In this document: positions 31,001-56,813 of the stretch, piece after piece
How the letters are laid out: every line of letters starts with the position of its first letter
Numbering within the stretch: the first letter of the stretch is position 1
DNA from: Trypanosoma brucei
Taxonomy: Eukaryota
Length of the DNA stretch: 64,000 nucleotides
Direction of reading: 5' to 3'
Assembly (NCBI GenBank): GCA_000002445.1
Contig: CP000070.1
Location: forward strand, 1,280,001-1,344,000
Program-made: the position numbers and the translations under genes
Notes under the pieces: model-generated
Database searches by the model: none
What the model saw: only the letters and a program-made list of their open reading frames with translations
Told to the model about the DNA's origin: nothing

Positions 31001-32913
31001 CACGAAATGCGATTGTGCGATATAACACATTCCAAATATCGAATTAGTCTGCACAAAATTGCCCACCGTAAGTTGCATCAATTTTTTCCTCGCTGTTGCT
31101 ACAGCAGACCATCGATTCCAAGTACGTTAATATGCGCACGGATAGCTGTCCATGCGGGTTTCAGTGAGGTGTTGCACTTGAACAAGTTCACTTCCGGTCA
31201 TCTTTCGATGACACAGAGCGGAACATCTGCATATTTAAAAAAGCGTGAACAAGTAAGTAAAAAAGCCGAGCCGCCTCGGTGATGCGTGACAGTAGCGCGA
31301 ACGTTAGTGGTTCGTTTCTTCTTCCGGTGATATTGATATTAAAATCCCAGAAAGATAATTCACGCTACAGCCAATCTTCCCTTTGCGCGGACACCTTCAT
31401 TACCCCATCAAAAAGATATTACACCGGTTAAATCGAAAGGGTTTGTAAAATCAACAGAACTTTTGCGAAGGGCGATAGGAACGGGAAGCACATCGACGAA
31501 CATTCGCATAGAAGCAGTGATCAGACCCTTCGTAAGCTGCATAATCGTTAAGAAAGAGATGACACACCTCTCCCTCGTTGTGCACAACCGCACCTAGCAC
31601 CACGAGATGCACGTACAGTTGTGGAGCGTATCAGCAGGGAAAATGACAGGCAGGCCCGGCACATGTACATTATAGCGCAGAAGGGAGGGGTGAAGCGGCA
31701 CCCACCCAGCGCTCCACAGTTCCAGACCACGCAACGTTTGGACCCTTTCAAACAAAGGCCCCGTACCACGATAACGTCCCACCCATCGCACGCCGCATCG
31801 TGGTCGGCACCCACTGGCCCCAACTCATACAACCTAAAGGATACCAACGCGCAGTACCGGGCTAAGCGAGGGCAAATTCCCCATACGCGCCACATCTGCC
31901 GTTCTCGGTAAATACGGGCCGTACGTGCACAGGTTGTCAAGCACCCCTCCAGTCTTCAAGCGCAAAGAACAAAAACTTCGTTCCTCCTCCGCCGCAGCAT
32001 TCCTACTGCGACGCCAGCGGCCGGCGCAGGGCGAACCTGCGGCAGCTGACCATCCCCCACGCCCCACGACAAGCTCCCATTCCACCACCATGCGGCCATG
32101 CCCCAGTGGTACAACACCGACGGAACTGACGCACCCCCATTTTCACTGGCGAATTTCGAATGCACCAATGGCGCGCCACGCACGGTGGCCTTTACAGTGT
32201 GAATCCGCTCCATCCTCCGGGAGAGAAGGTGCACGGAGTGAGCAAACACCGTCGACCAAACTATCCGTCCCGAAACCTTCAGAGGCCTGAAGACAAGCAT
32301 TTCTTGTTTTTTCGTGGTACTCCCCGCCTTGCACTACCACACCGTCCCGACAGCGACCCTCTGCGCATCTTGGTTGCCACACCCACCCTATTGAATGGAG
32401 GAGTCCCTATTGCGAGCGGTGAGCCTAAACTAACCGCACAGGTGGCCCCAAATGGGCAAAGCACGTTGTCGTATTTCCCCCTTCTTCTTAATATGTGTGT
32501 CTTTCCCTCCTTATACATGGCATTTGCTTTTGCTCACCCTGAAGGAGGGGCCCTTTTTCTTGGTCTCGCTTCTTATTGTTGTGTTTTGGTCAAATAGTGT
32601 TTTCCCGTGAGCGTACCACGTTGTAACACCATCCCTTCAAATCATTTAATCACTCATGCGTGCGATGTCCCGGAGGGCTCGATTTCTCTTCCATCACGCG
32701 GGATGACCCTCCCCTGACCACAAGCTGAACAAAACATCCTATTGCTTGTTGCACCTCAAGAGGTGATGGGTCGGCCGCGCCTTCTTCAGGATGTCGCTAC
32801 CGGTCCTGTTGGACAGCCCTCCGTCTACAATGCTCCCCGTCGGACCATGTAACATTTCCATCGTGCTTTTATCATTTATGAATGTTGAGAATAACCACGG
32901 TCCGGCCTCGTAG

Positions 32914-32941
32914 CGCACACACACACACACACACACACACA
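32914..32941. repeat. (CA)13 microsatellite (reads TG on the minus/sense strand of the left array)
   Basis: Direct read: gcgcacacacacacacacacacacacac. Confidence 0.9.
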
Positions 32942-35199
32942 GCTGCACCAACCCCTGATGGAATCTCCAGAATACTCATGTGACCCAGTCCGGTGAAAAA
33001 ACCGCTCCTAACTTTACCAGCATGAGCCTGGTTATTATGGACACTTCTTGCGCACACAACTCCACGACTCATACAGGCTTCGTTGTGTGGCCCGGTTACT
33101 TTGGCGCCTTCCTCAACGCATACCTCTACGGGTCACCATAAGATTTAGTGAAGGGCGCGTTATCCCCCGAAACGGTATGCGCCCGCTTTGGTAGTTTAAA
33201 CTTCAATGAAGTCATCTTTTGATCACTAGGTATCGTGGACAGGTCCAGCCCGTGGGGTTACATTTCAGCTTCCGTCAACCCTCCTCTGTTTGCGTTAGCA
33301 TAAGGTTGCCGGCGGGGAAAAGGTTTAATATATTCTGTTTACATTGGTTAGTAACTCAGTGGATCTATCGTTCACGGCCATGAACAGAACAAAGTCGGAC
33401 ACCGTTCTTTTTGCCACACGGTACGGCTATATGGGGCCTTCCCAAAGTACTGTCGGTTTATAATGACTCTCGCCATCTTGTTGGGTGAAAGTTTCTTACC
33501 CACCACATAATTTGTAGATTAGAAAAAAACTTTCTCGGCCGCTCAGAAAATGGCAACATTTCCCATGGGTTCAAACTAACGAGTGTAGAGTATGAATTTC
33601 ACCGTGGCGAGCACCGTCGATTCGTACCAAGTTGCGTCTCCAATCAACTGAGTTATGGATCCTACTGCCAAATGTTGGCGCAGAAACCTTTCTCTTTTGT
33701 ATACGCAACTGACAGTCAACAGAGTCCACAAATCTCCTTTGAATCAACTACTGCATTGCTTTGTAATTGGCGCAGGTGGTCGCTGTTAGTTTTTGACGAT
33801 GCCATGACAGAAATCCCCTTGCTTTCCCCTAACGCCAGTTCAATAGCTTCACACTTCCACTTCCCGACACTCCTCAGCATTTTCGATTCCCGTTGAGTAG
33901 TTGTTTACCTGTAGTTTAGCCCGTTTACCTCCATGTGCTTTAGTTGGTACACCATACACGCCATTTTCTTCAGCAGAAGAAGGAAATTTCGATCTTCCTG
34001 TGGCAACAATCGGCTCAACCATGCGAAACAGTTTGTGTTTCGCGTCTTCTCAACCTCTGGCACGTTCTTTACCGGGGCATCCGAGAGTTTTGTCTGTCGT
34101 TGGTGGCACATTTTTGACCTTGGTTGCGGCTACCGCTCCTTCTATCAGCGTCTTGCCGTTTATCACTGGTGGAAGGGTTGGTCCCCATTCTGGGGCGTGC
34201 ACCGCGTTCGAAAACTTGCGGCCGCTTTTTTTCTGTTGCCGACGATTTGGGTACATGATCTTTCCATTTTTTAAAGGCTAGTACATGCATGACATGTATC
34301 CTAACTTCAAAGAGGTCGCCTTTCCCTTGCACCTGTGGGAGATTATCAGCTTCCTAGTTTAGTTCTGAAAAACTACTGTTCATAGTAAGAGAAATTACTG
34401 GTCTACAGCTATGGATATTCCTCACTAGAGAGTCGCACATTGCTACGTGCATCCTGTCCCCATTTCAGTTTATACACGCTTCCATCTTGCAGAGCACTTT
34501 CCTCTTCCCTGTTACCCACCGTTTCTTGGATTATATACAGGTTGCCTCTTTTGATGAGAAGTGGGAGCTTCGATGAGCGGTTGGCATTATTTTTTCAACT
34601 CCTGACCCGGCGATGGCATGGAAGACTCTCGAACTGCGGTTGTAGTTCAGCCTGAGCGCGGCGTTCTTCTGCGGCACATCACAATTCTATTGGGAACTAC
34701 TGTCCGGGGCGAATTTGGTTCTTCAATTTTTTCTCCTTGCAATTGTCCCTGTGTGGACGACTCCCATTTCGTCATCCACAAACCAATTTGAGGTTGTCTT
34801 GCCTCTGTGAGTTCGTGAGATATGTTTGTCTTATGTAGGATGGTGGAAAATAACGTTCACCCGGTTAATGATCTCAGCCTTTCCGTGCCCGTTGTGGCGT
34901 TCTCCAGAAAGCGGTTGGGCGCAACGGTGAGCTTTACATGGCGGTCAACCGCCACCATGGTGGTTGCGTCTCCCATCAATTTCGGAGTTGACGACCCCTT
35001 TAGTAACTTCCACTACGTCCAGGACGAGGCATAGGCTCTGGGGACTCCGTTTTCAGTGCGTGCGTGTCCGCAACGCTTATATCCCATCACATTAAAGCAA
35101 AGGCTTTCCCCTCGGCTGAACCGCGTTTCTCAGGGAACGCAGAAAGTCACTTCGCCCTTTCGCAACGTTTCCACCGGGACGACCTCCTTCGATTGGGGC

Positions 35200-36100
35200 C
35201 GGAACATTTTATATCTCACTGAGCCGCGCGGGTGCCGGAACCAGTGGATTGACTGGGACCTTCGGCAAGTAACAGAGTGAGGCCGCGGGGATCTTGCGTA
35301 TGGACTTGTTGGCATGTGCTTCGGTGCAACTCGAGCTGCGTTGGACCCCCGGTGGCCGGCAGTCCGCCGTGCGTCGGCGCGGCCGCGGGTAACCCGAGGC
35401 AATTGCCATTCCATTCTTTCTGGGAGGGCTTTGACACGTCGGGGTTTATGTGTACGGCCGGCGGCTAACCTAACTGCCACGAAAGAACAACTCCAATAAG
35501 TTGTTTCCGTCTTGATTCTCGAGGTTTCAGGGATCCCGTATTAAACCATCCGGCGTGGGGGCGCACGGTCAAAGTCTTCTTTCCACATGCGGTGTGATTG
35601 ACTGCGAGGTCGTGGGTACCCGGAGATAGTTTGAGGGTAGCTCCCCTTTGTAAGCTTTCCCCCCGCCCGCGCTACGGTTACTTCCGTCTTCTTTCCACAA
35701 TGGGATATTCCCAGTGGAATGGGTTCCGGGGCCTTATCACCTCTCGTGCGGGAAAATTCTGACTCTTTGTGCCCTGTGGGGTTGTCTTTGATGACGGGGT
35801 CGGAGTTATCTTGAGACAATTTCACATTTCCTTCCCCCAATACGTTCTGTCGGGCGATGTGTTCTCGTACGGTTGCCCCTGCGTTGCGTTCAACTGGTTG
35901 ATCCTCGCGCCCGTTGCGCCTTACACGGAGTTTTGAGCCCCCCTTCAGGGTTCTGGGCGTTACCGGCAGCTGGGTGGTGGTTGCGGCTCCTTGCCATGAG
36001 TTTCATGTCCAGTGGACGCTGGAAGACATCTGAGGCAGCGCTCATTTTGATAGTATTGGCTATGTTGCTGTTTCTGACGTGTGTGTGGGAGGCTTCGCTT
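35200..36100. other. GC-rich island inside the strand-switch region (short direct repeat GGCCGCGGG at about 35281 and 35381); function unknown
   Basis: Local GC is visibly above 60% against an A/T-rich surround. No ORF with coding character. No match to known snRNA, 7SL or rRNA that I can recognise. Confidence 0.3.
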
Positions 36101-36184
36101 AGGTCGCTGATGGTGTTGCCGCTTTTTAAAAGTTCGGTCGAAAGGCGCGATGGGGGTGAGGCGCCGTGTGTGCACATAAACTGT

Positions 36185-36208
36185 GTTTGTGTGTGTGTGT
36201 GTGTGTGA
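36185..36208. repeat. (GT)11 microsatellite on the plus (sense) strand of the right array
   Basis: Direct read: tgtttgtgtgtgtgtgtgtgtgtgtgatg. Confidence 0.9.
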
Positions 36209-37901
36209 TGGAGGAGCGACTTAGCTCCACCAACGCTGAGAGAAGTGGTTTTAATCTAGTGGTTACTGCCGCTTTGGATTTCCCCTACTGGCGCCAATTC
36301 TGTTATTTGTGCCAGGTAATGGATAATTTGGGATGAGGGTATTGTTTTAATGTTGATGAGAGGCCGCACATGTTTTTTCCCTCTCGCCAATAGCTTGCAT
36401 TTCCAAAAATTTATTATATACCCTGAAAAATTGGCGGCATTTACCTCAATACACTGCTGCGTTCTGTATCTGGACGGTTGGTGCGTACCCCAGAAAAATA
36501 CGTAGCTCCTTTGAGTTATGTGTGGATGTTGTCCATTTATGCCACTGTTTCCCCTACCTATGTGGGGGGACTTGGTATCTTTGTGTTTTTGCCCATTATG
36601 AGGTAAAGCTATTGACGTGGTTTGCTGCGCACTTTCTGTTAAGTATGTTCGAGCTATCGTGTTCATGCGATCAATTTACGATCCCTATAACGGGTTATAT
36701 ATTGGGTTTCTTAGTTGTTGTTGTTTTTGAAGAAAGCGTGTGTCGGGGACGAGCGGCTGTTACAAACTAGGAGTTAAGACCGTCAGTCGTGTATATTTTT
36801 TGCGGTGCTGAATTCATGTGCCATCACTTACATCTTTTTCGTATGATTAATTTTTTTTTTTTGCCGAATCAGATTATCTGTTTATTGGAGGGTATTGGAG
36901 TGCCTTCGCTTTTGTTTAGCATTTTCCCGATTTCTGTTACTGGTTGGTTGGTCTACCGTTTTCCTGCGTAAATGGCGTAGGCGACGTGCTAACATAATTT
37001 GTGTTTCACTTACTGCGGTGCTGTGGGCAAGAAAAAGACCTACTTATGGACGTGAGCCTTTCGAACTATTGGAAAACAGTGGTTTCACTCAGTAAGGCTG
37101 CATCAGTTTTGCTACTGTCGTACATTTGAGAGTGCTCTCGACGCTTTTCGACCGAATTTTTTTTTAAAAAACTTCGTTGAAGTGTTTTCACGGCCATGCG
37201 CGTATGAATAGTAGGAACATTCGTGTATATATGTGCGAAAGTTTCTGTTTTTTTTGTTGATGATTCAGTCTCTTGACTGACGCCTTACCCTTTTTGGTGT
37301 TGATGTATCATATTAGGCCAGGAAAAGAAGGGGGAGGGGTTCACCAATCTACATTCGTACCGACCATTGCCACTAGAATCCATATGGGTAAATATTTGTA
37401 ATCAACTTTTGAGGAACTAGTACTATATCTTATTTCTCTAGAAGGAGGCTAACTACTGAGTGGGGTGATCCACTTTATAGTTTATAACTCACGGACAAAC
37501 AAACCCGTTCCTATCCTTGATTGAGTTTGGCTTGTTCTACCGGCCCTTATAAACACAAAGCTACTGTTGTCGGAAATTCGTAAAGAAAGCCGACTGTCGT
37601 TTCTTTGCTTTTTCGTTATACGTGGTTGCACTCTTTGTTGATACTTTTGTCAATGTTATCTTATGCATAATGCTAAAGCACGAAATGTACCCTAATTCAA
37701 GTTGTTGTAATGTGTTGCTGGCTTCGACATATTACAGATGAATGCCCCCTTTCTACTATAAGACACCGTTTACCTCCCCCCTGACAACAGTGGAGAGAGT
37801 TTGCCAGATACGCCGCCAGCGGTTAAGTCCGTTGTGGAAATAGCATCAACAGGATGGATGTAGGCGATGATGAGTAAGCGTTAAATCTTCTCATAGACGT
37901 T

Positions 37902-39251
37902 GTGAGAAACAGTGTCTCACAGTTAAATAAATATTGGCTCGCTGGTGTGGGGACTTCTTGCCACCAGAGCCTGCGTGGGCTGACAATGTTGTCGGGCATT
38001 ACCTTTGAAATATTTCTGTTTAATTTTGAGATATATCATGATTTTTCTTCCCCCCTCCTTTTTTCTTTAGCCATTCGCATCGTGATTGCTTGTGGAATTC
38101 CGTCAATGACAAACTCTTCAGTGCAGCAGGTTGGTTGCCGGGTAACATACATATGGCTTTCTGGAAAGGATTCGCATCACGATATTCGCAGCAAGGACAG
38201 AACCATATATATTTCACCTGATGATTTGGAAAAGGACCCCAAAGAGCTTCTCCGTTTGGATATGTTCCCTGTATGGAATTTTGACGGTTCCTCAACAGGT
38301 CAAGCTGAAGGATTAATAACTGAAATTCACATCAAGCCTGTAAATGCGTACCACTGTTGCATTCCCCGTGCTTCCTCTTCAGTACCATGGATAGTTGTAC
38401 TCGCTGAATGCTTTTTACCGACCGGCGAACCCACACCCGATAACTCGCGGGCGGTAGCTCGTCGCATATTTGATAAAGGGCTCGGTACCCATCCATGGTT
38501 TGGGATGGAACAGGAATATTTCTTGGTAAAAGACGGACATCCCTATGGTTGGTGTCCCACTTGTCCCCCCGCGTCCCAGGGACCTTACTACTGCGCAACT
38601 GGCTCTGAATGTATCCGAGGTCGGAAACATGTTGATTTGCATTATGAGGTTTGCCTGCAAATGGGACTCAAGATATGTGGCACAAATGCTGAAGTTGCAT
38701 TTGGACAGTGGGAATTTCAAGTCGGGCCGTGCGAAGGGATCGAAATGGGTGATCAGCTTGTTGTGGCTAGGTGGGTGTTGCTACGAATTTTGGAGCTTGA
38801 AGGGTTGGATGCAGATTTTCGTGCAAAGCCTATTTTGGGCGACTGGAACGGTAGCGGACTTCACACCAACTTCTCAACAGAGGCCACTCGGGCACCGGGT
38901 GGTTTGGAAGTCATTTATCAATATATTGAAAGATTAAAGGAAACTTCGTCCAAGGATATAATTTTTTATGGAGTTGACAATAACGAGCGGTTAATAGGGA
39001 AGCACGAGACCTCAAAATTAAATGAAACAACGTTTGGAATAGGTACACGGGGGACCTCAATTCGAATTCCTACCGCTGTGGCTGCCGCACAAAGTGGTTA
39101 TATGGAGGATCGCCGGCCTGCGGCAGGGGCTGATCCATACTTGGTGTCATCAAGGCTCTTTGCATCATGCCTATCAGTGGACGCCGTTGAACTGGATTTT
39201 TCATCTCCTCGACACGAGCGGGAGTGGATGGCAAGTACTTCTAAGGTGTAG
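37902..39251 (+). CDS. GS: Glutamine synthetase type II; the homologous region starts at Met69 (nt 38106), and the preceding 68 codons are non-homologous
   Basis: GS-II signatures: YIWLSG...RSKDRT, FDGSSTGQAEG (matches the FDGSSTGQA signature), WFGMEQEY, NGSGLHTNFST, RGTSIRIP. The upstream 68 aa are hydrophobic, low-complexity, and unrelated to GS. Confidence 0.85.
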   Translation: MRNSVSQLNKYWLAGVGTSCHQSLRGLTMLSGITFEIFLFNFEIYHDFSSPLLFSLAIRIVIACGIPSMTNSSVQQVGCRVTYIWLSGKDSHHDIRSKDRTIYISPDDLEKDPKELLRLDMFPVWNFDGSSTGQAEGLITEIHIKPVNAYHCCIPRASSSVPWIVVLAECFLPTGEPTPDNSRAVARRIFDKGLGTHPWFGMEQEYFLVKDGHPYGWCPTCPPASQGPYYCATGSECIRGRKHVDLHYEVCLQMGLKICGTNAEVAFGQWEFQVGPCEGIEMGDQLVVARWVLLRILELEGLDADFRAKPILGDWNGSGLHTNFSTEATRAPGGLEVIYQYIERLKETSSKDIIFYGVDNNERLIGKHETSKLNETTFGIGTRGTSIRIPTAVAAAQSGYMEDRRPAAGADPYLVSSRLFASCLSVDAVELDFSSPRHEREWMASTSKV

Positions 39252-39804: not shown

Positions 39805-40992
39805 ATGCCTGGTTGCCTTTCGGCGCTGGCGTCGCATGTGGAATCAGCATCTGTGGTCAGTACCAAGTCGAAACGTAAAAGGAAAAGTAAGAAGAAGGCT
39901 TTGTACGACCAATATCTTGCTGACTCAGGCAGCGAAGACTCATCTGAACTGAGCAAAAATGTGAACGGAACTCCAAGCAAGTATGAATATGAAGAATTTG
40001 AACCCGGTATGGATATAAATATTCTCATTCAACAAACTATTCAGAATGTTGTGCAGAGCGTATGTTTAGAAGATTGTGACGGCCTATCACAATTTGGCGA
40101 CAATGATTTAATTTGTTTTAGCGCGGCAGTGAAACATAATAGTTCTATTCTTTCTCTTCAAATCCGGTACCTTGATGTTTCGGATGTGTCACTTGTACCT
40201 CTGTGCCGTGCACTTGAGTGCCATCCTTCTATTCGGGCTCTGGATCTATCGGGGACCAGGGGTGGCCGCCCCTCTGTCAAAGCGGTCTTTCAACTTGTGT
40301 GCACAAATCCTAATATATTGTTTGTTCGCCTGGACGATACGATGGTATCCCCACACGACGCTGAGGATATAAGGGTTGCTACCCTATATAATGCTTTGGC
40401 ATGCCCTGATCCCACTAACAATCCCTTTTATTTAGGGTTGTTGCGAAAAATAAGCGACATAGAAGAGGAAAAGCAGAAATACAAAGAACAGCTATCGGAA
40501 CAGTTGTGGCTTTTTTCAAGTCGACCCCAAAACAATTTAAATTCGGGTAAGGAGAAAAAGGTTGGATTCAGTGAAAAGGTATCAGAGTCTCGAATAGGCG
40601 CTGATGTTTGTGCACAGTTTATGTCTGGGAGGTGTGCATACGGGTCACGGTGCAGGTACATTCACCCTGATAAGACCACCGCACTTAGGAACGCAATTGC
40701 CCTTAGTAAATATAAGATGGCGCAGATGATCGATGACGACGCGAAATCAGTTAAAAGCAGCGCAACTTCCCTTGGACAGACTGGAAGGGGTAGGTTGCAG
40801 AGTAGACTTCGTCCAACGAATTTTACTATGAATAAAGTGCATTGTGCGGTCGCCACTGTGCATGAAGGTTCGGTTGAACAGTGTAGTGCAGGCTCGAACG
40901 AGGAAGCGGCTGACGTAGCTTTGAGGTTGTCCATTTGGACATTTGCTCTTGTTACTGCTGTTTGCAGTGTTGTGCTGATCGTGGTTTACTGA
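39805..40992 (+). CDS. CCCH-type zinc-finger protein with leucine-rich-repeat-like region and a C-terminal tail-anchor TM
   Basis: C-x7-C-x5-C-x3-H motif (CAQFMSGRCAYGSRCRYIH). Basic N-terminal KRKRKSKKK. LRR-like L..L..L periodicity (LSLQIRYLDVSDVSLVPLCRALECHPSIRALDLSG). Extreme C-terminus LRLSIWTFALVTAVCSVVLIVVY is hydrophobic. Confidence 0.7.
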   Translation: MPGCLSALASHVESASVVSTKSKRKRKSKKKALYDQYLADSGSEDSSELSKNVNGTPSKYEYEEFEPGMDINILIQQTIQNVVQSVCLEDCDGLSQFGDNDLICFSAAVKHNSSILSLQIRYLDVSDVSLVPLCRALECHPSIRALDLSGTRGGRPSVKAVFQLVCTNPNILFVRLDDTMVSPHDAEDIRVATLYNALACPDPTNNPFYLGLLRKISDIEEEKQKYKEQLSEQLWLFSSRPQNNLNSGKEKKVGFSEKVSESRIGADVCAQFMSGRCAYGSRCRYIHPDKTTALRNAIALSKYKMAQMIDDDAKSVKSSATSLGQTGRGRLQSRLRPTNFTMNKVHCAVATVHEGSVEQCSAGSNEEAADVALRLSIWTFALVTAVCSVVLIVVY

Positions 40993-43905: not shown

Positions 43906-44688
43906 ATGGTGTCACTGAAGCTCCAAGCTCGCCTGGCAGCGGACATCCTGCGCTGCGGCCGCGGCCGCGTGTGGTTGGACCCTAACGAAGCAGTAGAGAT
44001 TCGCAATGCCAATTCACGCAAGAGTGTACGCAAGTTGATCAAAGACGGTTTGGTAATGCGAAAGCCTGTTAAGGTGCATTCGCGCTCCCGCTGGCGCCAG
44101 ATGAAGTTGGCGAAGAGCATGGGACGCCACGAGGGTACCGGCCGCCGCGAGGGTACTCGCGAAGCACGCATGCCCAGCAAGGACCTTTGGATGCGCCGAC
44201 TTCGCATTCTTCGCCGTTTGCTTCGCAAGTACCGCGAAGAAAAGAAGATTGATCGGCACATCTACCGCGAGCTGTACATGAAGGCAAAGGGCAACGTGTT
44301 CCGCAACAAGCGCAACCTTATGGAGCACATCCACAAGGTGAAGAACGAGAAGAAGAAGGCTCGTCAGCTTGCTGAGCAACTCGCGGCGAAACGCCTAAAG
44401 GACGAGCAGAACCGCCGCAAGGCACGAAAGCAGGAGCTGAAGAAGCGTGAGAAGGAACGTGAGCGTGCACGCCGTGACGATGCCGCTGCTGCTGCCGCTG
44501 CCAAACAACGAGCTGCCGCGAAGAAGGCTGCCGCTCCCGCTGCCAAGAAGGGTGGCAAGGCTGTTGCCCCCGCCACTCCTGCGAAGGCCGCCCCTGCAAA
44601 GGCCGCCGCTGCGAAGGTTGCCCCAGCGAAGGCGGCTCCCGCAAAGGCCGCCAGCCCTGCCGGGAAGAAGGCAGCGGGTAAGAAGTGA
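43906..44688 (+). CDS. RPL19: 60S ribosomal protein L19e, copy 1, with C-terminal KAAPAKAA repeat tail
   Basis: [28 protein letters not shown]...[29 protein letters not shown]...[28 protein letters not shown] is canonical L19e. The Ala/Lys/Pro repeat tail is typical of trypanosomatid ribosomal proteins. Confidence 0.95.
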
Positions 44689-45589: not shown

Positions 45590-46372
45590 ATGGTGTCACT
45601 GAAGCTCCAAGCTCGCCTGGCAGCGGACATCCTGCGCTGCGGCCGCGGCCGCGTGTGGTTGGACCCTAACGAAGCAGTAGAGATTCGCAATGCCAATTCA
45701 CGCAAGAGTGTACGCAAGTTGATCAAAGACGGTTTGGTAATGCGAAAGCCTGTTAAGGTGCATTCGCGCTCCCGCTGGCGCCAGATGAAGTTGGCGAAGA
45801 GCATGGGACGCCACGAGGGTACCGGCCGCCGCGAGGGTACTCGCGAAGCACGCATGCCCAGCAAGGACCTTTGGATGCGCCGACTTCGCATTCTTCGCCG
45901 TTTGCTTCGCAAGTACCGCGAAGAAAAGAAGATTGATCGGCACATCTACCGCGAGCTGTACATGAAGGCAAAGGGCAACGTGTTCCGCAACAAGCGCAAC
46001 CTTATGGAGCACATCCACAAGGTGAAGAACGAGAAGAAGAAGGCTCGTCAGCTTGCTGAGCAACTCGCGGCGAAACGCCTAAAGGACGAGCAGAACCGCC
46101 GCAAGGCACGAAAGCAGGAGCTGAAGAAGCGTGAGAAGGAACGTGAGCGTGCACGCCGTGACGATGCCGCTGCTGCTGCCGCTGCCAAACAACGAGCTGC
46201 CGCGAAGAAGGCTGCCGCTCCCGCTGCCAAGAAGGGTGGCAAGGCTGTTGCCCCCGCCACTCCTGCGAAGGCCGCCCCTGCAAAGGCCGCCGCTGCGAAG
46301 GTTGCCCCAGCGAAGGCGGCTCCCGCAAAGGCCGCCAGCCCTGCCGGGAAGAAGGCAGCGGGTAAGAAGTGA
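45590..46372 (+). CDS. RPL19: 60S ribosomal protein L19e, copy 2 (identical to copy 1)
   Basis: Identical 260-aa translation to 43906-44688. Confidence 0.95.
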
Positions 46373-48265: not shown

Positions 48266-50140
48266 ATGGAGCAAACCAGCAAACCCGCTAACCTTCCTCC
48301 CTGTTCACCAAGACAGGCGGTGAAGAATATTCTTAGGGGTGTCGATAGCCACGTTCGGGTTATGTCCCATTTAGATAACGTGTCCACTTCTTCCAGTTAC
48401 TCGGCGGTGCGGCTGAAGAAGCCGAAAACGGATTCTTGGACGGAACCATTTAACGTGACCCGTGTGCATCGAGGTACATCTACGAATAGTTTCTACCAGG
48501 AGGTTATAGCACCGTGCGTGGCAAACTGTTTAGCTGGGCAGAGTTACCTGTTTTTAGTTAGTGGTCCCTGTGAAAGCGGTCGAAGTCAGACCCTCTACGG
48601 CAGTCCACACCATAAAACCAAGGGCGTCGTTGAACTTGCCGCCGAAGACTTGTTGGGCTATATGACCGGTGGTGCTGAGAACAACGATGACAACCCTAGT
48701 AGGGGGCAGCCAACAGTCACCCATTCCGCCTTTGTTACGCGCGGGTCACACATAAACGAAACAAAGACAGGCGAGCCCGTTCCTATTGTGGACTTTCCAC
48801 CTCCGCTGGGTCGCACTGCTCTTCCGCGCATGCAGTTGCTAGAGTCAGCTGCTAGCGTTGTACAAATACCCGAGCACAAGTATTCAGACACTTCTTGTAT
48901 TATTCAGTTTCAGGTTTATGTTCCGGTGGACACCCTAGGACGGCGTTCCATGGCCACACTAACCTTTGTGGACGCTGCAGCATTTCACTCGCAGCCGTGC
49001 AGTGAGGTTCGTCATCTTGTATCTACCGTGCGTCGGGTGGCGGGACTGTCTAACGGCGACGGCCCCAGTTTCGATCAGAGGAAACTGACGACTTTGCTTG
49101 AGCCTGCACTTATGGGTTATGTCACGCTAATGTCCATCACAACCATCAGTGGTCGAGATGACTTACACGAAGCGGCATGTGAAGCTCTGCGCTTCGCTGA
49201 GACCATTAGTCGGATTCATCAGGTTCTTATGTTAGTACACATCAACACGCCCAAGTGGTTCCTAGACACGGCGGAGAAAGTAGAGGTTCTGAGGTCCCAG
49301 CGTAATAAGATGCTGTCTGAACAGCATGCTCGCGGCGTGTATGACTATTACGTGACTGTCACCAAGTGGTTGTCTCAGCATGTGGCCGGCGCCGGTTGTA
49401 CGTTTGATAAATTACTTGAAGAAGTGGAGCAAATTCGTGAAGACCTTGCGTGTGAGATGAAGGAGAGGGTTAAAAGCGTCCAGGCATCTATACAAGAGGC
49501 TGAGAAACAGCACGCTCTTCAACTTGAGCGCACACGCAATGCCCACGCGATAACAACTTCACAATTGGACAAGGTAAAACGCTTAGACGAAACAATAGCC
49601 GCGCTTACTCAGAAGGTGACACAGCGAGATCTGTTCAACGACCACAAAATAAGCGAAATGCGTATCGAAATATCTGCTATTGAAAGCGAAACAGAGACGC
49701 GGAGACAGGAGTTGCTGCGGTTCGAAAATGAGGAGAGGCTGTACGGAACTAAATGCGCGGAGGTGATGGGGGTTCTTGAGAAATATTCAGCAGACCTTGC
49801 TAATTCCCAGATGCACTACGTGCTCACCGAAGAGATGAGTGCCATCGAAGAAAAGAAGAAACGCCTGGAGGCAGATCTTGCAACTGCTTCGCGTATTGCA
49901 CATATGGAGAGTGACAATTTCCGCGCTAATCGAGAGAAGAATTCACGCCTCTCACACCTGTCGGTGATGCAGCAGAAAGTTGACTCCCTTCGGGGACGTA
50001 TCTTAACAAACAGCGTTTCCCATACCATGAGCCGAAGCGCAAGCCACCTTAGCCCGCGTAGTCAGCCTGACGCTTCGCCTTCAGAGTCACCGGCGCAAAA
50101 GCGGCGGCGGTTCGCAAGCCCGCGGTACTCCGCTGTGTAG
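48266..50140 (+). CDS. Kinesin-like protein with degenerate nucleotide-binding motifs (pseudo-motor) and a C-terminal coiled coil
   Basis: The kinesin motor fold is recognizable. The segment FYQEVIAPCVANCLAGQSYLFLVSGPCESGRSQTLYGSP corresponds to Q..VY......L.GYN.TIFAYGQTGSGKTYTM.G. GIIPR corresponds to GVVEL. The neck/alpha4-6 region KLTTLLEPALMGYVTLMSITTISG corresponds to SKLTRLLQDSLGGNSKT.MIA.ISP. A long heptad region follows at about residues 370-560. Walker A is GPCESGRS (Lys to Arg, Thr to Ser). Switch II DLAGSE is replaced by DAAAFH. Confidence 0.75.
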   Translation: MEQTSKPANLPPCSPRQAVKNILRGVDSHVRVMSHLDNVSTSSSYSAVRLKKPKTDSWTEPFNVTRVHRGTSTNSFYQEVIAPCVANCLAGQSYLFLVSGPCESGRSQTLYGSPHHKTKGVVELAAEDLLGYMTGGAENNDDNPSRGQPTVTHSAFVTRGSHINETKTGEPVPIVDFPPPLGRTALPRMQLLESAASVVQIPEHKYSDTSCIIQFQVYVPVDTLGRRSMATLTFVDAAAFHSQPCSEVRHLVSTVRRVAGLSNGDGPSFDQRKLTTLLEPALMGYVTLMSITTISGRDDLHEAACEALRFAETISRIHQVLMLVHINTPKWFLDTAEKVEVLRSQRNKMLSEQHARGVYDYYVTVTKWLSQHVAGAGCTFDKLLEEVEQIREDLACEMKERVKSVQASIQEAEKQHALQLERTRNAHAITTSQLDKVKRLDETIAALTQKVTQRDLFNDHKISEMRIEISAIESETETRRQELLRFENEERLYGTKCAEVMGVLEKYSADLANSQMHYVLTEEMSAIEEKKKRLEADLATASRIAHMESDNFRANREKNSRLSHLSVMQQKVDSLRGRILTNSVSHTMSRSASHLSPRSQPDASPSESPAQKRRRFASPRYSAV

Positions 50141-51152: not shown

Positions 51153-54092
51153 GTGCGTTGGAGAGGGGTAATGCACGACGGGTCGCAGCAAGATGCGTCC
51201 CACGGAGCGACTGCAATGAACAGTGGTGTGGTTCCGGATGGCCAGTGGAGGGTGGATGAAAATATCATTATCCGAGAGATACTTGCAATGAATACACTTG
51301 CCATGCAGAGGTGCGATACGGGGGCACTCGATGAATCAAGTAGTATTCTTACTGATGCCTACATGAAACTGCACAACGATACATCAACCGGTGAATCCCA
51401 GGGGTTAGACGCGGTACGTGCAACGACACTCAACAACCTTGGTGTTGTTGAATGCCACCGCGGGCAGCATCGACAGGCGCTAAGTCATTTCGAAGCCGCA
51501 CGGCAGTTGGAGGAGGCGTGGAGTGCCGCCTCCCCTTCCGTGGCTTTGAACAGCTGTGCTGCATATAATGCACTTGGAATGTATGACAAAGCCACGGCTG
51601 CTGCAATGGAAACTATCAATATGTTGCGCAGGTTGTTTGCCCAACAAGAGTTTCAGGGATCGCCTACCGGTGAAGTTGCTTCTACCCCCGGTGGAAGCTG
51701 TGGCGCACAACCTCAGAGCGATGGGATGAATGTTGCCAGTTCCGACAACGCAGCACTGTGGGGTGCCGCCTGGCACAATTTGGCGGTTGCGCAAATCAAC
51801 ACGGCAAAGAGCAGCACTGATCTGAGTGAGTACACCAATGCTGCGGCTCTGTTCCAGAATGCTATGCGTGCGACGCAAGAGTTGTTAGGGTATGACCATC
51901 CGATGACAAAGAGTGTGACGGAGACATACCGTGCGGTACGCAACGCGCTACGGACGCACGGCGTTTATAAACAACACCACACTCTCTTTACGGCACCTTT
52001 GAGGCCTGCGGACCCGCGTGATGAGGCGGATGATATGGAGCAGTATTTCAAGCAATGTGGCATCAAGTCGAGGAGACGGGCTTTGGAAAAGTATTACCGC
52101 GATTTGACCATCACGTTCTGTGGTGCTGTGACGAATGGAGTGAAACTGACTGAGCGGCTCGATCCCACTCCGTACCCCCTGGCAAAAGATGTGTCATTTC
52201 GCAGGAGTGGTCAAAAGGATTCACTGCGAATGTTGCGAGCAATACCGACGGGGAGCACTATTGAGAAAGCATGTCACCTGTACGGTAATCCACATCCTTT
52301 GCTATTTTCGTTACCGCCTGAGTACCGTGCAAGTGAGGTGGGGACTGCAAAGAGTATCCCAAAAGCTGCATCAGCTAATTCTTTTGCAAAAGTGCCTATG
52401 AAACCCAATGCTCTCGCAAGCTCCAGAAGACCACAACCGAAGCGTGAGCAGATATTTAACGAGGGGCAAAGGAGAATGCAAATTCAGTCGAATATGCCAA
52501 AGCAGCAGCAGCGCCAAATCGGTCCGCCATCGACTGTGGTGAACTATTCACGCGCACTACAGGAAACCCCGGGAGCTGCGCCAACTATTCCTCAGATTAC
52601 CCCTCTGAGTTACAAAGCGAGCATCGATGAGCACTGGCAACCACCAGTTAATCAAACTCCGGCACCTGTGAATTACAACTGGTCCGTTCAACAGCAGGCA
52701 CCAAATACTGTCCCAACGGCTCCGCTTGTTTACCAGCAGGCATCAGTTAATCAAACTCCGGCACCTGTGAATCACAACTGGTCCGTTCAACAGCAGGCAC
52801 CAAATACTGTCCCAACTGCTCCGCTTGTTTACCAACAGACGCCAGTTAATCAGGGTCAAGCACCTTTGAATCACAACTGGTCCGCTCAACAGCAGGCACC
52901 AAACGTTGTTCCAACGGCTCCGCTTGTTTACCAGCAGGCATCAGTTAATCAAACTCCGGCGCCTGTGAATCACAACTGGTCCGTTCAACAGCAGGCACCA
53001 AACACTGTTCCAACTGCTCCGCTTGTTTACCAGCAGGCACCAGTTGATCAAACTCCGGCGCCTGTGAATTACAACTGGTCCGCTCAACAGCAGGCACCAA
53101 ATACTGTTCCAACTGCTCCACTTGTTTACCAACAGGCACCAGTTAGTCAGGGTCAAGCGCCTGCCGTGGCCAGTCAACCCCCCCTGAACCAGATGCCGAA
53201 CGTTTCTCAAGGAGAATCATTTGATCACCAGCAAGGGATGAGTGGACGACAGGAACCTTTGCGCCAGCAAGAACAGCAGATGCTGGCCTCATGCCGCCGG
53301 CAAGCTCCCGCTGACCTTGGCCAGGGAGCTGCAGCCGACCACCGTTCGCATCAGGAGTCGGTCTCTAATAATACCCTGGTAGTTGGTGGACAGGAAGAAA
53401 AAAAGAAGAAGGACCATGTGCAACCTGTTCCCGCTGCACCCGCGGCTGTTCCTGCTGGGCCCGCGGTCGGTGAGGCTTCGAAGCCTGCAGCGGCGGTTCG
53501 AGGGCCCCTTCCACCCCTGAAATCACCACCAGGTGGTCGTGTGATAGCAAAGGCTGAGACATCCGATGGAGTTGAGGGAATCGTTAGTGCGCCACGCAAA
53601 GCTTCGTCCGGAGGGCAAACAGCGACATATGATGCACGGAGAGCCTACGAGCAAATAAAGTACATTCTACTGGCCGACCCACCGGCCGAGGCTTCCCGGA
53701 GAAAATCTAAGCAAGACCGTAGCAAAAAGGATTCTGTGCCTGCAAATGTGCCCCAACAGGAATGTGGCCCCTGGACCGATAACGCAGCACCCGCAGCCGG
53801 GGAGTCACCAACGGAGCATAAGCCTCACCGTCTATTTGATGCTTTATGGGTTTCGGGCGGGGGCCCAGCTGACCAGGCCCCGCTGCGCGTAGTTGGGAAG
53901 CCCAGCTACTTTGTGTCATCCGTCCTTGACATGCGCCAGGGTCAGGCGGAATTCCCTGAGGAGGTGATGCAGATGGTGGCGGAAAATAGTCGTTCCTCTT
54001 GTTCCGATGTGGAGGAAAGACATTCTCAGACGATGGGGCCCGCGCAACACTCATGCACTGAGGCTGGAATACCCACACATGATCAGTCATGA
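51153..54092 (+). CDS. TPR-like repeat protein (N-terminus) with an internal array of six 33-aa Q/P-rich repeats and a Pro/Ala-rich C-terminal region
   Basis: N-terminal helical repeats (LNNLGVVECHRGQHRQALSHFEAARQLEE; AYNALGMYDKATAAAMETI; WHNLAVAQI) are TPR-like. The central repeat block has the shape VNQTPAPVN[HY]NWS[VA]QQQAPNTVPTAPLVYQQ[AT][SP] x6. Confidence 0.75.
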   Translation: MRWRGVMHDGSQQDASHGATAMNSGVVPDGQWRVDENIIIREILAMNTLAMQRCDTGALDESSSILTDAYMKLHNDTSTGESQGLDAVRATTLNNLGVVECHRGQHRQALSHFEAARQLEEAWSAASPSVALNSCAAYNALGMYDKATAAAMETINMLRRLFAQQEFQGSPTGEVASTPGGSCGAQPQSDGMNVASSDNAALWGAAWHNLAVAQINTAKSSTDLSEYTNAAALFQNAMRATQELLGYDHPMTKSVTETYRAVRNALRTHGVYKQHHTLFTAPLRPADPRDEADDMEQYFKQCGIKSRRRALEKYYRDLTITFCGAVTNGVKLTERLDPTPYPLAKDVSFRRSGQKDSLRMLRAIPTGSTIEKACHLYGNPHPLLFSLPPEYRASEVGTAKSIPKAASANSFAKVPMKPNALASSRRPQPKREQIFNEGQRRMQIQSNMPKQQQRQIGPPSTVVNYSRALQETPGAAPTIPQITPLSYKASIDEHWQPPVNQTPAPVNYNWSVQQQAPNTVPTAPLVYQQASVNQTPAPVNHNWSVQQQAPNTVPTAPLVYQQTPVNQGQAPLNHNWSAQQQAPNVVPTAPLVYQQASVNQTPAPVNHNWSVQQQAPNTVPTAPLVYQQAPVDQTPAPVNYNWSAQQQAPNTVPTAPLVYQQAPVSQGQAPAVASQPPLNQMPNVSQGESFDHQQGMSGRQEPLRQQEQQMLASCRRQAPADLGQGAAADHRSHQESVSNNTLVVGGQEEKKKKDHVQPVPAAPAAVPAGPAVGEASKPAAAVRGPLPPLKSPPGGRVIAKAETSDGVEGIVSAPRKASSGGQTATYDARRAYEQIKYILLADPPAEASRRKSKQDRSKKDSVPANVPQQECGPWTDNAAPAAGESPTEHKPHRLFDALWVSGGGPADQAPLRVVGKPSYFVSSVLDMRQGQAEFPEEVMQMVAENSRSSCSDVEERHSQTMGPAQHSCTEAGIPTHDQS
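52647..53165 (+). repeat. In-frame 99-bp tandem repeat array (about 5.2 copies, slightly degenerate) inside the 51153-54092 CDS
   Basis: The 'gttaatca' motif recurs at 52647, 52746, 52845 and 52944, giving a 99-nt period. Further copies follow, with third-position and a few replacement differences. Confidence 0.85.
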
Positions 54093-55265: not shown

Positions 55266-56813
55266 ATGACCGGTGGGGAGTTGGATGTGGTTAACCGCAT
55301 TCACAGGGAGCAACGCAACCGAAACGCATTTTGCATGTGGTGGATTGGCATGATTAACAACTTCCACTACTGCTTGGTGCTAAGTGGTTCCCTGAGTCTT
55401 GCTGAGGGATATGGAATGAGACAATACGTTGCACTGATTACGTGGGCGAATGTGTTCTTCGGAATTGTGGCCCGTATTATTAATGCATTGGTTCTCTCAC
55501 TACTGTCGTTCAACATCCGCGTGACAGTAACGTATTTTATGGGGCTGTTGGCAATTTTCTTGGTGAGCTTCGCTTATGACATCGGTGGACACAACAACGT
55601 TGCTGCTTTTGTTGTACTACTCATCGGTGTCGTCTTCATCGGTACTGCGAGTAGCTACGGCGAGTCCGTGTTTCTTGGATATATGGAGCGGTTACCGTCC
55701 AAGCAGGTCGGTGCGTGGTCCTCCGGGACGGGCCTGTCGGGCGTTGCTGCCTCTCTTATTTATCTCGGACTGGCACACGCTGGTTTTTCAAACTCCTCTA
55801 TCTTCCTCATGAGCACACCGTTTCTTGCGATGTACTGGGCATTTTACTTTTTCGGCCTTAAACTGCCCGTTGAAACGCGGGAGGGTGGGTACAAAGCAAT
55901 GGTGAACTGGAAGGGCACGCCGTGGAGGTCCATCACTCCGGTGCCTCATAATAAGATGCCCGAATGTTTGAAGGATATGCGACAGGAACAATGTTTGGCA
56001 ACTGAGGGGTACGAAGATGGCATGTACTCTGAGCAAGACGGAGACGACTCGCACCGGTCGCAAACCTTCAACGAGTATACTTGGCCTATTTTGAAGTCGA
56101 TGCACAAGTTTACATTGTGGAACAACTTCAACCTTGCCAGTGTGTACATTGCGGAGTACGCTGTTCAGTTCATGGCACCTTTCTGTTTCCCTTGCAAGCA
56201 ACTGAAGGAGAGCAAGAGCTTCTGGATAAAGAATGCGTTCGTATTGACACAGTTCTGCTATCAGTTTGGCGTTTTGATTTCTCGCAGCAGTCTTGTGTGC
56301 GTTCGCATTCGGCAGGTGTGGATTTTGACTGTTATTCAAGTGATTAACGCTGTCGCATGGTTTGTGGAAGCAAAGGTACACTTCCTGGAGGACCCCGACG
56401 ATGAGAAGCGGCAGCTTACATTCACTTTCATTTTGTTTGCGTGGATGGTTTTTGTGGGGCTTTTGGGTGGGGCCTCTTATGTGAATGTCTTCTACAACAT
56501 ACTTGAGGAGACGAAGGAGGCTCAGAATGCTGAGATTGCTGAATTCGTTGCTTGGCGCGGGAGGAAGAGGGCACCTGGGCTATCAAGTGAGCGCGTTTTT
56601 AACGATACAGAGTTTGGGGAGCCTTTGGGTTCAGAAGAGGAGGAAGCCACCATTATACGAGACTGTGTTGCTCACATTACCGCCGAGTGGAAGACAAAGC
56701 GTGACATGGCCATGAACATCGGTGCCCTTTACGTTACTGTTGGCATCACGCTTGGATCCCTCCTTGATCTCTTTTTTACGGTGGTCGTACTGCGCGGTGG
56801 TGGTTGCAGTTAG
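55266..56813 (+). CDS. CLN3: CLN3/battenin-family multipass membrane protein
   Basis: N-terminal signature FCMWWIGMINNFHYCLVLSGSLSLAEG matches the CLN3 motif F(W)LLGLCNNFSYVVMLSAA. It has 10 or more hydrophobic helices and an acidic loop (EGYEDGMYSEQDGDD) in the middle. Overall length about 500 aa. Confidence 0.8.
   Translation: MTGGELDVVNRIHREQRNRNAFCMWWIGMINNFHYCLVLSGSLSLAEGYGMRQYVALITWANVFFGIVARIINALVLSLLSFNIRVTVTYFMGLLAIFLVSFAYDIGGHNNVAAFVVLLIGVVFIGTASSYGESVFLGYMERLPSKQVGAWSSGTGLSGVAASLIYLGLAHAGFSNSSIFLMSTPFLAMYWAFYFFGLKLPVETREGGYKAMVNWKGTPWRSITPVPHNKMPECLKDMRQEQCLATEGYEDGMYSEQDGDDSHRSQTFNEYTWPILKSMHKFTLWNNFNLASVYIAEYAVQFMAPFCFPCKQLKESKSFWIKNAFVLTQFCYQFGVLISRSSLVCVRIRQVWILTVIQVINAVAWFVEAKVHFLEDPDDEKRQLTFTFILFAWMVFVGLLGGASYVNVFYNILEETKEAQNAEIAEFVAWRGRKRAPGLSSERVFNDTEFGEPLGSEEEEATIIRDCVAHITAEWKTKRDMAMNIGALYVTVGITLGSLLDLFFTVVVLRGGGCS

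Follow-up and report, generated by a model that had tools for sequence, protein, structure and literature searches.

Trypanosoma brucei KIN-B carries a degenerate kinesin-like head that is the best-conserved region across its family

It is almost certain that the open reading frame at 48266..50140 (+ strand) of the window, i.e., of the whole 64,000-nt stretch of Trypanosoma brucei DNA analysed here, is the KIN-B gene and that its product belongs to the chromosomal passenger complex (CPC) of kinetoplastids as a kinesin-like subunit without catalytic activity. The frame runs from ATG to TAG and encodes 624 aa, all of which (624/624) are identical to the protein named 'Orphan kinesin KIN-B KINB_TRYB2' in UniRef (P0035; XP_846127.1). 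That is, the ORF and T. brucei KIN-B are the same gene without any difference. The sequence matches the proteins of both T. b. brucei TREU927 and T. b. gambiense DAL972, and the gene ID Tb927.7.5040 is given in PMC2396291.

KIN-B is thus a known and characterised protein, and the finding of a dead kinesin is already published. Li et al. 2008 (PMC2396291) described that the P-loop Lys and SSRSH are missing, and with the missing switch II all three defects are in print (PMC2396291; PMC10987093). Ballmer & Akiyoshi 2024 (PMC10987093) credit Wickstead & Gull 2006 with the prediction of an inactive motor. As a discovery, KIN-B therefore carries little weight. What we add is that the dead head is the best-conserved region across 39 family members, with frozen remnants of its motifs. 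Table 1 lists the respective features. The head and coiled-coil boundaries found here agree with the published constructs 2-316 and 317-624 (PMC10987093).

Table 1. Features of the KIN-B gene and protein; positions refer to the window.
Feature	Residues (aa)	Position	Strand	Basis
Complete CDS, T. brucei KIN-B (Tb927.7.5040)	1-624	48266..50140	+	ORF list; 624/624 identity; 624 aa + TAG stop
N-terminal low-confidence, probably disordered segment	1-27	48266..48346	+	pLDDT <50 for residues 1-30; mean conservation 0.39
Kinesin-like pseudo-motor head	28-325	48347..49240	+	
N4 base-binding region remnant SHLDN	34-38	48365..48379	+	KIF5B RFRP opposite aa 35-38 HLDN (MAFFT)
Degenerate P-loop / Walker A GPCESGRS, replacing GQTxxGK[ST]	100-107	48563..48586	+	HMMER to CENP-E; hhalign and MAFFT to KIF5B; translation check
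Degenerate switch I YSDTS, replacing SSRSH	206-210	48881..48895	+	MAFFT to KIF5B
Degenerate switch II DAAAFH, replacing DLAGSE	236-241	48971..48988	+	Profile vs Kip3; MAFFT to KIF5B
L12/alpha5-equivalent FDQRKLTTLLEPALM	269-283	49070..49114	+	Aligned to KIF5B YRDSKMTRILQDSLG
Strongly conserved neck-linker-like strand RIHQVLMLVHINTPKWF between head and coiled coil	316-332	49211..49261	+	Aligned to KIF5B neck linker TIKNTVCVNVELTAEQW
Long alpha-helical, probable coiled-coil region (published KIN-A dimerisation and CPC scaffold region)	330-578	49253..49999	+	AlphaFold2; composition; partial heptad signal
Disordered Ser/Pro/Arg-rich C-terminal tail with KRRR and several S-P sites	579-624	50000..50137	+	pLDDT <50 for residues 577-624

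In the window, KIN-B is surrounded by unrelated genes of housekeeping function, arranged in a polycistronic unit, which provide no functional clue. No RNA genes were found in the window.

The kinesin homology of KIN-B is well above chance. Pfam PF00225 matches the protein with 34.9 bits (E 1.1e-08; gathering cut-off 29.3 bits) in two stretches, the best of which spans only aa 43-135. Searched against the PDB, the KIN-B family profile finds the CENP-E motor (E 3e-08) and also Kip3, OSM-3 and Ncd; CENP-E is likewise the best match of the single KIN-B sequence (E 1e-03). When Foldseek is run with the AlphaFold2 model, all of the top-50 matches are kinesin motors (E ~1e-17), with target TM values of 0.6-0.7 over ~315 columns at 14-19% identity. 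For the comparison with KIF5B, we used MAFFT --add and the structure searches in place of hhalign. Here, KIN-B 28-331 aligns to the verified KIF5B motor 8-340 with 18% identity, while hhalign of the family profile against the single KIF5B sequence covers the P-loop neighbourhood only (probability 4%), because a single-sequence template is too weak. The kinesin motor fold, i.e., a central beta-sheet with flanking helices (beta1-alpha1-beta3-P-loop-alpha2...alpha4-alpha5-beta8-alpha6), is present in KIN-B and thus retained by its N-terminal head. A kinesin-fold head was what the original prediction had claimed, and two of the checks named there, the PF00225 search with a KIF5B alignment and the AlphaFold2 model, bear it out.

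By the established mechanism, Ser/Arg of switch I and Gly/Glu of switch II are essential for kinesin hydrolysis. In the KIF5B alignment, GQTSSGKT is found opposite GPCESGRS and switch II is replaced by DAAAFH with both Gly and Glu gone, exactly as predicted for the two motifs, while the segment aligned to the switch I motif NxxSSRSH reads EHKYSDTS. The profile alignment to Kip3 places the KIN-B stretch tltFvDvAafre opposite TLSIIDLAGSE; the loop L11 that follows switch II is ~8 residues shorter than in KIF5B. Furthermore, H93 of KIF5B is opposite Q108. The prediction had been tied beforehand to the absence of canonical motifs elsewhere in the sequence. A regex search found no G-x4-GK[ST], DxxGxE, SSxS[HY] or RxRP anywhere in the KIN-B protein, so the claim stands. 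All three motifs of a competent motor, i.e., Walker A GxxxxGK[ST], switch I NxxSSRSH and switch II DxxGxE, are thus missing. That is, the head is without the residues for gamma-phosphate sensing and hydrolysis: the P-loop Lys is changed to Arg, and SSRSH, the switch II Gly and Glu as well as RxRP are gone. Together with negative microtubule-binding data, this motif loss suggests that KIN-B is catalytically inactive.

The respective binding data are published. The head (aa 2-316), which Ballmer & Akiyoshi obtained as soluble protein from E. coli, neither decorated the spindle nor co-sedimented with taxol-stabilised microtubules, where the co-sedimentation assay combined porcine tubulin with the isolated head, not the heterodimer (PMC10987093). 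In our alignment, the microtubule-contact Arg residues of the L12/alpha5 segment are replaced in KIN-B, and Ballmer & Akiyoshi (PMC10987093) noted the loss of conserved alpha4-L12 tubulin-contact residues. Both observations bear on a further reading of the head, namely as a partner head of the type known from yeast Kar3-Vik1 and Kar3-Cik1, where a kinesin-14 is combined with a non-catalytic motor-homology partner. We consider this very unlikely. Besides the lost contact residues, the isolated KIN-B head differs from the KIN-A head in showing neither co-sedimentation nor spindle decoration, and Ballmer & Akiyoshi favour a single-headed KIN-A unit (PMC10987093). The Vik1/Cik1 combination of a C-terminal motor-homology domain that has no P-loop and binds microtubules is not what we find in KIN-B, which shows a degenerate N-terminal head (28-325) and a C-terminal coiled coil (helices 330-578).

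The AlphaFold2 model contains a beta-strand at 318-325, which is part of the neck-linker-like segment. Its residues Q319, V320, L323 and H325 as well as the nearby P329 and W331 are invariant in 20 KIN-B orthologues and can still be recognised when all 39 family members are compared.

Next, we consider conservation across this family. All KIN-B orthologues that were found belong to kinetoplastids or to environmental relatives, and a sharp gap in E-values separates them from other kinesins. Across the 39 family members, head identity to T. brucei KIN-B is as low as 30-39%. Nevertheless, mean conservation is highest in the head (0.64), followed by the coiled coil (0.42) and the tail (0.17), and parts of the nucleotide site are nearly fixed. 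Within the P-loop remnant G-x4-G-R-S, the second Gly and the Ser are present in 39/39 members and the Arg in 38/39, with Lys in the other one. For switch II, Asp is kept in 39/39 members while Gly is found in none and Glu in 1/39. SSRSH is at the switch I position of none of the 39. No intermediate member with canonical motifs is among them; P0049 alone has the Walker A Lys (GPPNSGKS), and even there both switches are degenerate. This sequence stems from ENA metagenome contigs, among them ERZ22232004 NODE_5631, which show no synteny with the T. brucei KIN-B locus.

These statistics also relate to the possibility that KIN-B is a genuine, albeit slow, ATPase motor that hydrolyses via unusual motifs. 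KIN-B keeps the G-x4-G-[R]-S spacing of Walker A, a Walker B-like Asp is present and Pfam still assigns the protein to Kinesin. We nevertheless take KIN-B to be almost certainly no such motor: switch I Ser/Arg and switch II Gly/Glu are absent in essentially all 39 members, the head does not bind microtubules, and, by analogy, a change of the switch II Gly alone (G210A) turns KIN-A into a rigor motor (PMC10987093).

The sequence and structure tests agree with the original proposal that KIN-B is no motor but a structural or regulatory subunit, in line with the published head that does not bind microtubules and the coiled coil that acts as scaffold. The sharpened question is why, of all parts of the protein, the dead head is conserved most and why an Arg-containing P-loop remnant is frozen family-wide. 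One answer would be that the head is a decaying evolutionary relic without own function such that the coiled coil alone matters. This is in accordance with published localisations, i.e., KIN-B 317-624 alone reaches kinetochores while the head alone is nucleolar (PMC10987093). We regard the relic reading as highly improbable, because neutral evolution would have degraded or removed such a relic, whereas the head is more conserved than the coiled coil and, throughout the family, has its fold intact and its motif remnants fixed, even at the low head identities given above. The dead head rather appears to be kept under strong purifying selection. Moreover, if the head were a purely passive scaffold, the very strong conservation of its P-loop remnant and switch II Asp would be left without explanation.

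An alternative that does address these remnants is a pseudo-ATPase head, which would hold nucleotide or Mg-phosphate as structural cofactor or allosteric switch without hydrolysis and whose bound state would regulate the KIN-A head or Aurora B-INCENP docking. Its phosphate/Mg-binding elements are frozen in the 39 members and only the gamma-phosphate sensors are lost, within the most conserved region of the protein. Furthermore, published crosslinks place the catalytic module and the INCENP N-terminus near the KIN-B head (PMC10987093). On the other hand, the adenine-contact elements are gone (RxRP is HLDN, H93 is Q108), the acidic P-loop residue (E103 or D) observed in 26/39 members would disfavour phosphate binding, and the conserved remnant could merely serve the packing of the beta3-alpha2 core. 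Overall, we rate this reading as unlikely. The more specific proposal, i.e., that the head may bind nucleotide or Mg-phosphate via G-x4-G-R-S and the switch II Asp and that this state or surface controls the KIN-A head or the proposed 'locked/open' Aurora B-INCENP docking, is in our view quite unlikely. If true, KIN-B would be a regulatory switch in the sensing of kinetochore-microtubule attachment. We also considered a phosphate-mimicking salt bridge between E103 and R106 and dropped it, given that E103 is found in only 23/39 members of the wider family.

Returning to the non-catalytic subunit, we studied the region C-terminal of the head, for which a coiled coil had been predicted. The AlphaFold2 model contains two helices, 330-371 and 381-578, the second with pLDDT of about 71-92. 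The composition of the region is rich in E/K/R/Q/L (44%) and poor in P+G (2.4%). A simple heptad test yields a significant periodicity for 381-480 only (z 3.5), i.e., neither for 330-371 and 481-578 nor for the whole region. Since the heptad signal is confined to this part, the call of a probable coiled coil rests mainly on the helix model, the composition and published crosslinks. In the latter study, an AF2-multimer model and BS3 crosslinks place residues ~320-580 of KIN-B in a parallel coiled coil with KIN-A (PMC10987093). The tail behind it consists to 50% of S+P+R.

Published work also defines the function of KIN-B. It co-purifies with Aurora B, CPC1 and CPC2, and published pull-downs and IP-MS show its physical association with these and with KIN-A (PMC2396291; PMC10987093). 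Its coiled coil (aa 317-624) is both the pairing partner of KIN-A and the scaffold of the CPC (PMC10987093). Upon KIN-B RNAi, cells arrest in G2/M, and Aurora B, INCENP and KIN-A lose their localisation (PMC10987093). The protein is nuclear, first at kinetochores and then at the central spindle (PMC10987093). This localisation rejects a flagellar or cytoskeletal role, which the original prediction had wrongly given as its example.

Taken together, published work and our analysis give the following picture. The C-terminal half of KIN-B and the active kinesin KIN-A form a parallel heterodimeric coiled coil. INCENP (CPC1) and CPC2 dock on it by their N-terminal helices, close to the heads, and tether Aurora B (AUK1). 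The KIN-A:KIN-B pair is the localisation module of the CPC and, in anaphase, moves it to the central spindle, for which the KIN-A ATPase is required. KIN-B is needed for the localisation of KIN-A and of the CPC and for mitosis. For its dead head, we infer a role as structural partner of the KIN-A head and/or as docking surface for the catalytic module; it is probably not a second stepping head, and Ballmer & Akiyoshi favour a single-headed working of KIN-A (PMC10987093). That kinetoplastids, which are without Borealin and Survivin, position Aurora B by a kinesin pair is biology of real interest, all the more as T. brucei, for which KIN-B is essential, is a pathogen of humans and livestock.

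Finally, we compared KIN-B with known systems. One of these is its partner KIN-A, whose gene is located outside this window and whose features are taken from published work. Both combine an N-terminal kinesin head with a subsequent coiled coil, are part of the same complex and mutually depend on each other for localisation. In contrast to KIN-B, KIN-A has all nucleotide motifs, binds microtubules and needs its ATPase for central-spindle transfer. Its long disordered tail, by which it binds the KKT8 complex, has no counterpart in KIN-B. Published trees put both proteins near CENP-E/kinesin-7, where KIN-B is nested with CENP-E on a long branch with a bootstrap of only 54/100. CENP-E, like KIN-B, is a kinetochore-associated kinesin and provides the best sequence match among solved structures, significant only in the beta1-alpha2 stretch around the P-loop; unlike KIN-B, it is an active plus-end motor. 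With regard to transport, Ballmer & Akiyoshi (PMC10987093) draw the analogy to MKLP2/KIF20A of animals, also a kinesin that carries Aurora B-INCENP from chromosomes to the anaphase spindle. MKLP2 is an active kinesin-6 that joins the CPC transiently at anaphase, whereas KIN-A:KIN-B is a constitutive pair of CPC subunits, which in contrast to MKLP2 also replaces Borealin/Survivin as kinetochore-targeting module, as published.

The product of the kinesin-like ORF is identical (624/624) to a T. b. brucei TREU927 cluster member with the UniRef name 'Orphan kinesin KIN-B, KINB_TRYB2' (XP_846127.1), and a T. brucei gambiense protein matches it at 100% identity. Given this identity and the gene ID Tb927.7.5040 of TbKIN-B (Li et al. 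2008, PMC2396291), the ORF is therefore the KIN-B gene itself, whose degenerate motor head has already been described in print and studied by experiment. It sits within a same-strand gene run, a pattern typical of a trypanosomatid polycistronic unit. Its neighbours are ordinary housekeeping genes, none with an evident functional link to KIN-B.

Respective coordinates are listed in the table. The two tandem copies of the ribosomal protein L19e gene show the same Pfam scores, and the repeat in each encodes an Ala/Lys/Pro-rich C-terminal extension. Downstream of KIN-B, the repeat in the TPR-protein gene specifies a Gln/Pro/Val-rich unit of 33 aa (...NWSVQQQAPNTVPTAPLVYQQ...). The divergent strand-switch region separates the minus-strand block (ending at 28035) from the plus-strand block and includes both dinucleotide tracts; GC skew and AT skew switch sign around 34-36 kb. 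Neither tRNA nor Rfam matches were found across the full 64-kb window.

Positions of the genes and repeats in the window, of KIN-B elements (all aa positions being KIN-B residues), and of the environmental KIN-B relative P0049 on its own loci
Feature	Position	Strand	Remark
XRN1-type 5'-3' exoribonuclease	8490-12746	-	
RNase H1	20340-21305	-	
S9 prolyl-oligopeptidase-family peptidase	21964-24705	-	
3-beta-HSD/epimerase-family dehydrogenase	25128-26432	-	
Strand-switch region	~28036-37901		~10 kb without ORF of at least 150 aa
(CA)13 microsatellite	32916-32941		
Complementary (TG)n tract	36181-36207		
Glutamine synthetase	37902-39251	+	
CCCH zinc-finger protein	39805-40992	+	
L19e, first copy	43906-44688	+	15-bp x5 repeat, 44578-44652
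L19e, second copy	45590-46372	+	15-bp x5 repeat, 46262-46336
KIN-B ORF	48266-50140	+	single, intact, ATG to TAG, 624 aa
KIN-B neck-linker-like strand	49211-49261		aa 316-332
KIN-B tail	50000-50137		aa 579-624
TPR-containing protein	51153-54092	+	~979 aa as listed; 99-bp tandem repeat (5.1 copies, 89% match), 52642-53149
CLN3 homologue	55266-56813	+	
KIF5B RFRP	aa 35-38		HLDN in KIN-B
KIF5B GQTSSGKT (P-loop/Walker A)	aa 100-107		GPCESGRS in KIN-B
KIF5B H93	aa 108		Q108 in KIN-B
KIF5B SSRSH (switch I)	aa 206-210		YSDTS in KIN-B
KIF5B DLAGSE (switch II)	aa 236-241		DAAAFH in KIN-B
Loop L11	after aa 241		8 residues shorter in KIN-B than in KIF5B
KIF5B YRDSKMTR	aa 269-276		FDQRKLTT in KIN-B
P0049 gene	L001:3312-6134		ENA ERZ22232004 NODE_5631; also L002:1092-3914

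The kinship with kinesins, claimed by the original prediction, is real. Pfam PF00225 scores 34.9 bits against KIN-B (gathering score 29.3, E 1e-08), but its strongest stretch spans just aa 43-135. Among PDB sequences, phmmer matches the CENP-E and Ncd motors, placing GQTASGKT opposite GPCESGRS. With a profile built from 20 KIN-B orthologues, the CENP-E match improves to E 3e-08, and Kip3, OSM-3, KIF22 and Ncd are picked up as well by way of the alpha5-alpha6 block; the profile's 'tltFvDvAafre' lines up with 'TLSIIDLAGSE' of Kip3. The AlphaFold2 model computed from the family alignment (mean pLDDT 68.7, head mostly 60-90) was compared with the PDB using Foldseek, and the best 50 matches are all kinesin motor domains (E ~1e-17, target TM 0.6-0.7, ~315 aligned columns, 14-19% identity).

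With regard to the catalytic motifs, we added the KIF5B motor sequence, first confirmed to equal PDB 1MKJ over its full length, to the family alignment with MAFFT. KIN-B 28-331 aligns to KIF5B 8-340 with 18% identity, and the Walker A and switch II substitutions read from the sequence alone recur in this alignment. In a regex scan of the whole protein, Walker A, switch I, switch II and RxRP are all missing in canonical form; therefore, KIN-B has no intact motif copy elsewhere of the kind that would have refuted the original prediction. This agrees with Ballmer & Akiyoshi (2024, PMC10987093), who describe KIN-B as devoid of the P-loop, switch I, switch II and many alpha4-L12 residues, and who cite Wickstead & Gull (2006) for a predicted inactive motor.

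The family is sharply bounded: searched with a profile, 1.84 billion representative proteins gave 26 representatives with E < 1e-30, followed by a gap to generic kinesins at E ~1e-8 or weaker. We counted motif states in 39 members, in some of which head identity to T. brucei is as low as 30-39%. The P-loop Lys position holds Arg in 38/39 (Lys in 1/39), and the P-loop Ser, its second Gly and the switch II Asp are each kept in 39/39, while the switch II Gly (0/39), the switch II Glu (1/39) and the switch I SSRSH (0/39) are lost. Thus, phosphate- and Mg-binding elements are preserved and gamma-phosphate sensors are gone, and from these motifs we infer a catalytically dead head. Such a pattern is compatible with a pseudo-ATPase, i.e., a head binding its ligand without hydrolysing it, but adenine-contact residues are lost in KIN-B and most members carry an acidic residue within the P-loop, which leaves this reading improbable. 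The same pattern also fits a P-loop remnant kept for core packing only. The single member retaining the Walker A lysine (GPPNSGKS) is P0049, an environmental protein from ENA contigs (940 aa, 29% identity to T. brucei KIN-B, E 2e-49). Both its switches are as degenerate as in the other members, a ~36-residue insertion directly follows switch II, and the genes on either side of it are not syntenic with the T. brucei KIN-B locus.

On average, identity with the T. brucei residue is 0.64 in the head, 0.42 in the coiled coil and 0.17 in the tail, which makes the head the best-conserved part of KIN-B. The neck-linker-like strand, RIHQVLMLVHINTPKWF, modelled as a beta-strand, is nearly invariant, with Q319, V320, L323, H325, P329 and W331 invariant in the 20 orthologues. 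This points to a neck that is permanently docked or to a mechanical coupling to the head of KIN-A, the active partner kinesin; we found no discussion of the strand in the cited KIN-B literature.

The coiled coil predicted to follow the head is likewise recovered: the AlphaFold2 model has one helix over aa 330-371 and a second, at pLDDT about 71-92, over 381-578. E/K/R/Q/L make up 44% of the helical region, which is almost without Pro or Gly, and a crude heptad test is significant for 381-480 only. The model ends in a disordered tail rich in Ser/Pro/Arg. We compared the C-termini of T. brucei KIN-B and eight relatives (P0039, P0041, P0043, P0045-P0048, P0054). Trypanosoma tails close with a cluster of basic residues, followed by an S-P site and RYSA[VMI] (T. 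brucei end ...KRRRFASPRYSAV), and distant members have brief hydrophobic motifs at their ends instead (...S[IL]A[ST]LYL[RIA], ...LALF, ...VALF, ...TSLF, ...SRFF). Judged by sequence, these may be lineage-specific docking or phospho-regulated motifs; Ballmer & Akiyoshi raise the possibility of extra kinetochore-targeting elements in the C-terminus of KIN-B.

Published work supports a non-catalytic structural or regulatory role. TbKIN-B was purified together with the Aurora B homologue (Li et al. 2008, PMC2396291), and an earlier paper reports its Tousled-like kinase interaction and essentiality in bloodstream forms. The following is from PMC10987093. Under KIN-B RNAi, cells arrest in G2/M, and Aurora B, INCENP(CPC1) and KIN-A lose their localisation. 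KIN-B 2-316 neither localises to the spindle nor co-sediments with microtubules, and 317-624 alone localises to kinetochores. AF2 modelling and BS3 crosslinking define a parallel KIN-A:KIN-B coiled coil (KIN-B ~320-580) as the assembly site for N-terminal helices from INCENP(CPC1) and from CPC2; INCENP makes its contacts mostly with KIN-B, near the heads. KIN-A binds the KKT8 complex through its tail, and its ATPase is needed for the transfer to the central spindle (G210A rigor mutant). The authors call the role of KIN-B in motility unclear and favour KIN-A as a single-headed unit.

In the best-supported account, KIN-B is the non-catalytic member of a kinesin heterodimer that gives the kinetoplastid chromosomal passenger complex (CPC) both its scaffold and its localisation module, and the KIN-B head probably acts as a structural partner or offers a docking surface instead of being a stepping head. 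Every element of the original observation holds up, as does the core interpretation, apart from the flagellum- or cytoskeleton-associated scaffold offered as an example, which was wrong.

CENP-E is the best solved-structure sequence match for KIN-B, in agreement with the 2024 phylogeny, which places KIN-A in the CENP-E grouping and KIN-B weakly so (54/100 bootstrap, long branch). In function, the KIN-A:KIN-B pair does the job of MKLP2, i.e., bringing the CPC to the central spindle, as well as that of Borealin/Survivin, i.e., centromere or kinetochore targeting.
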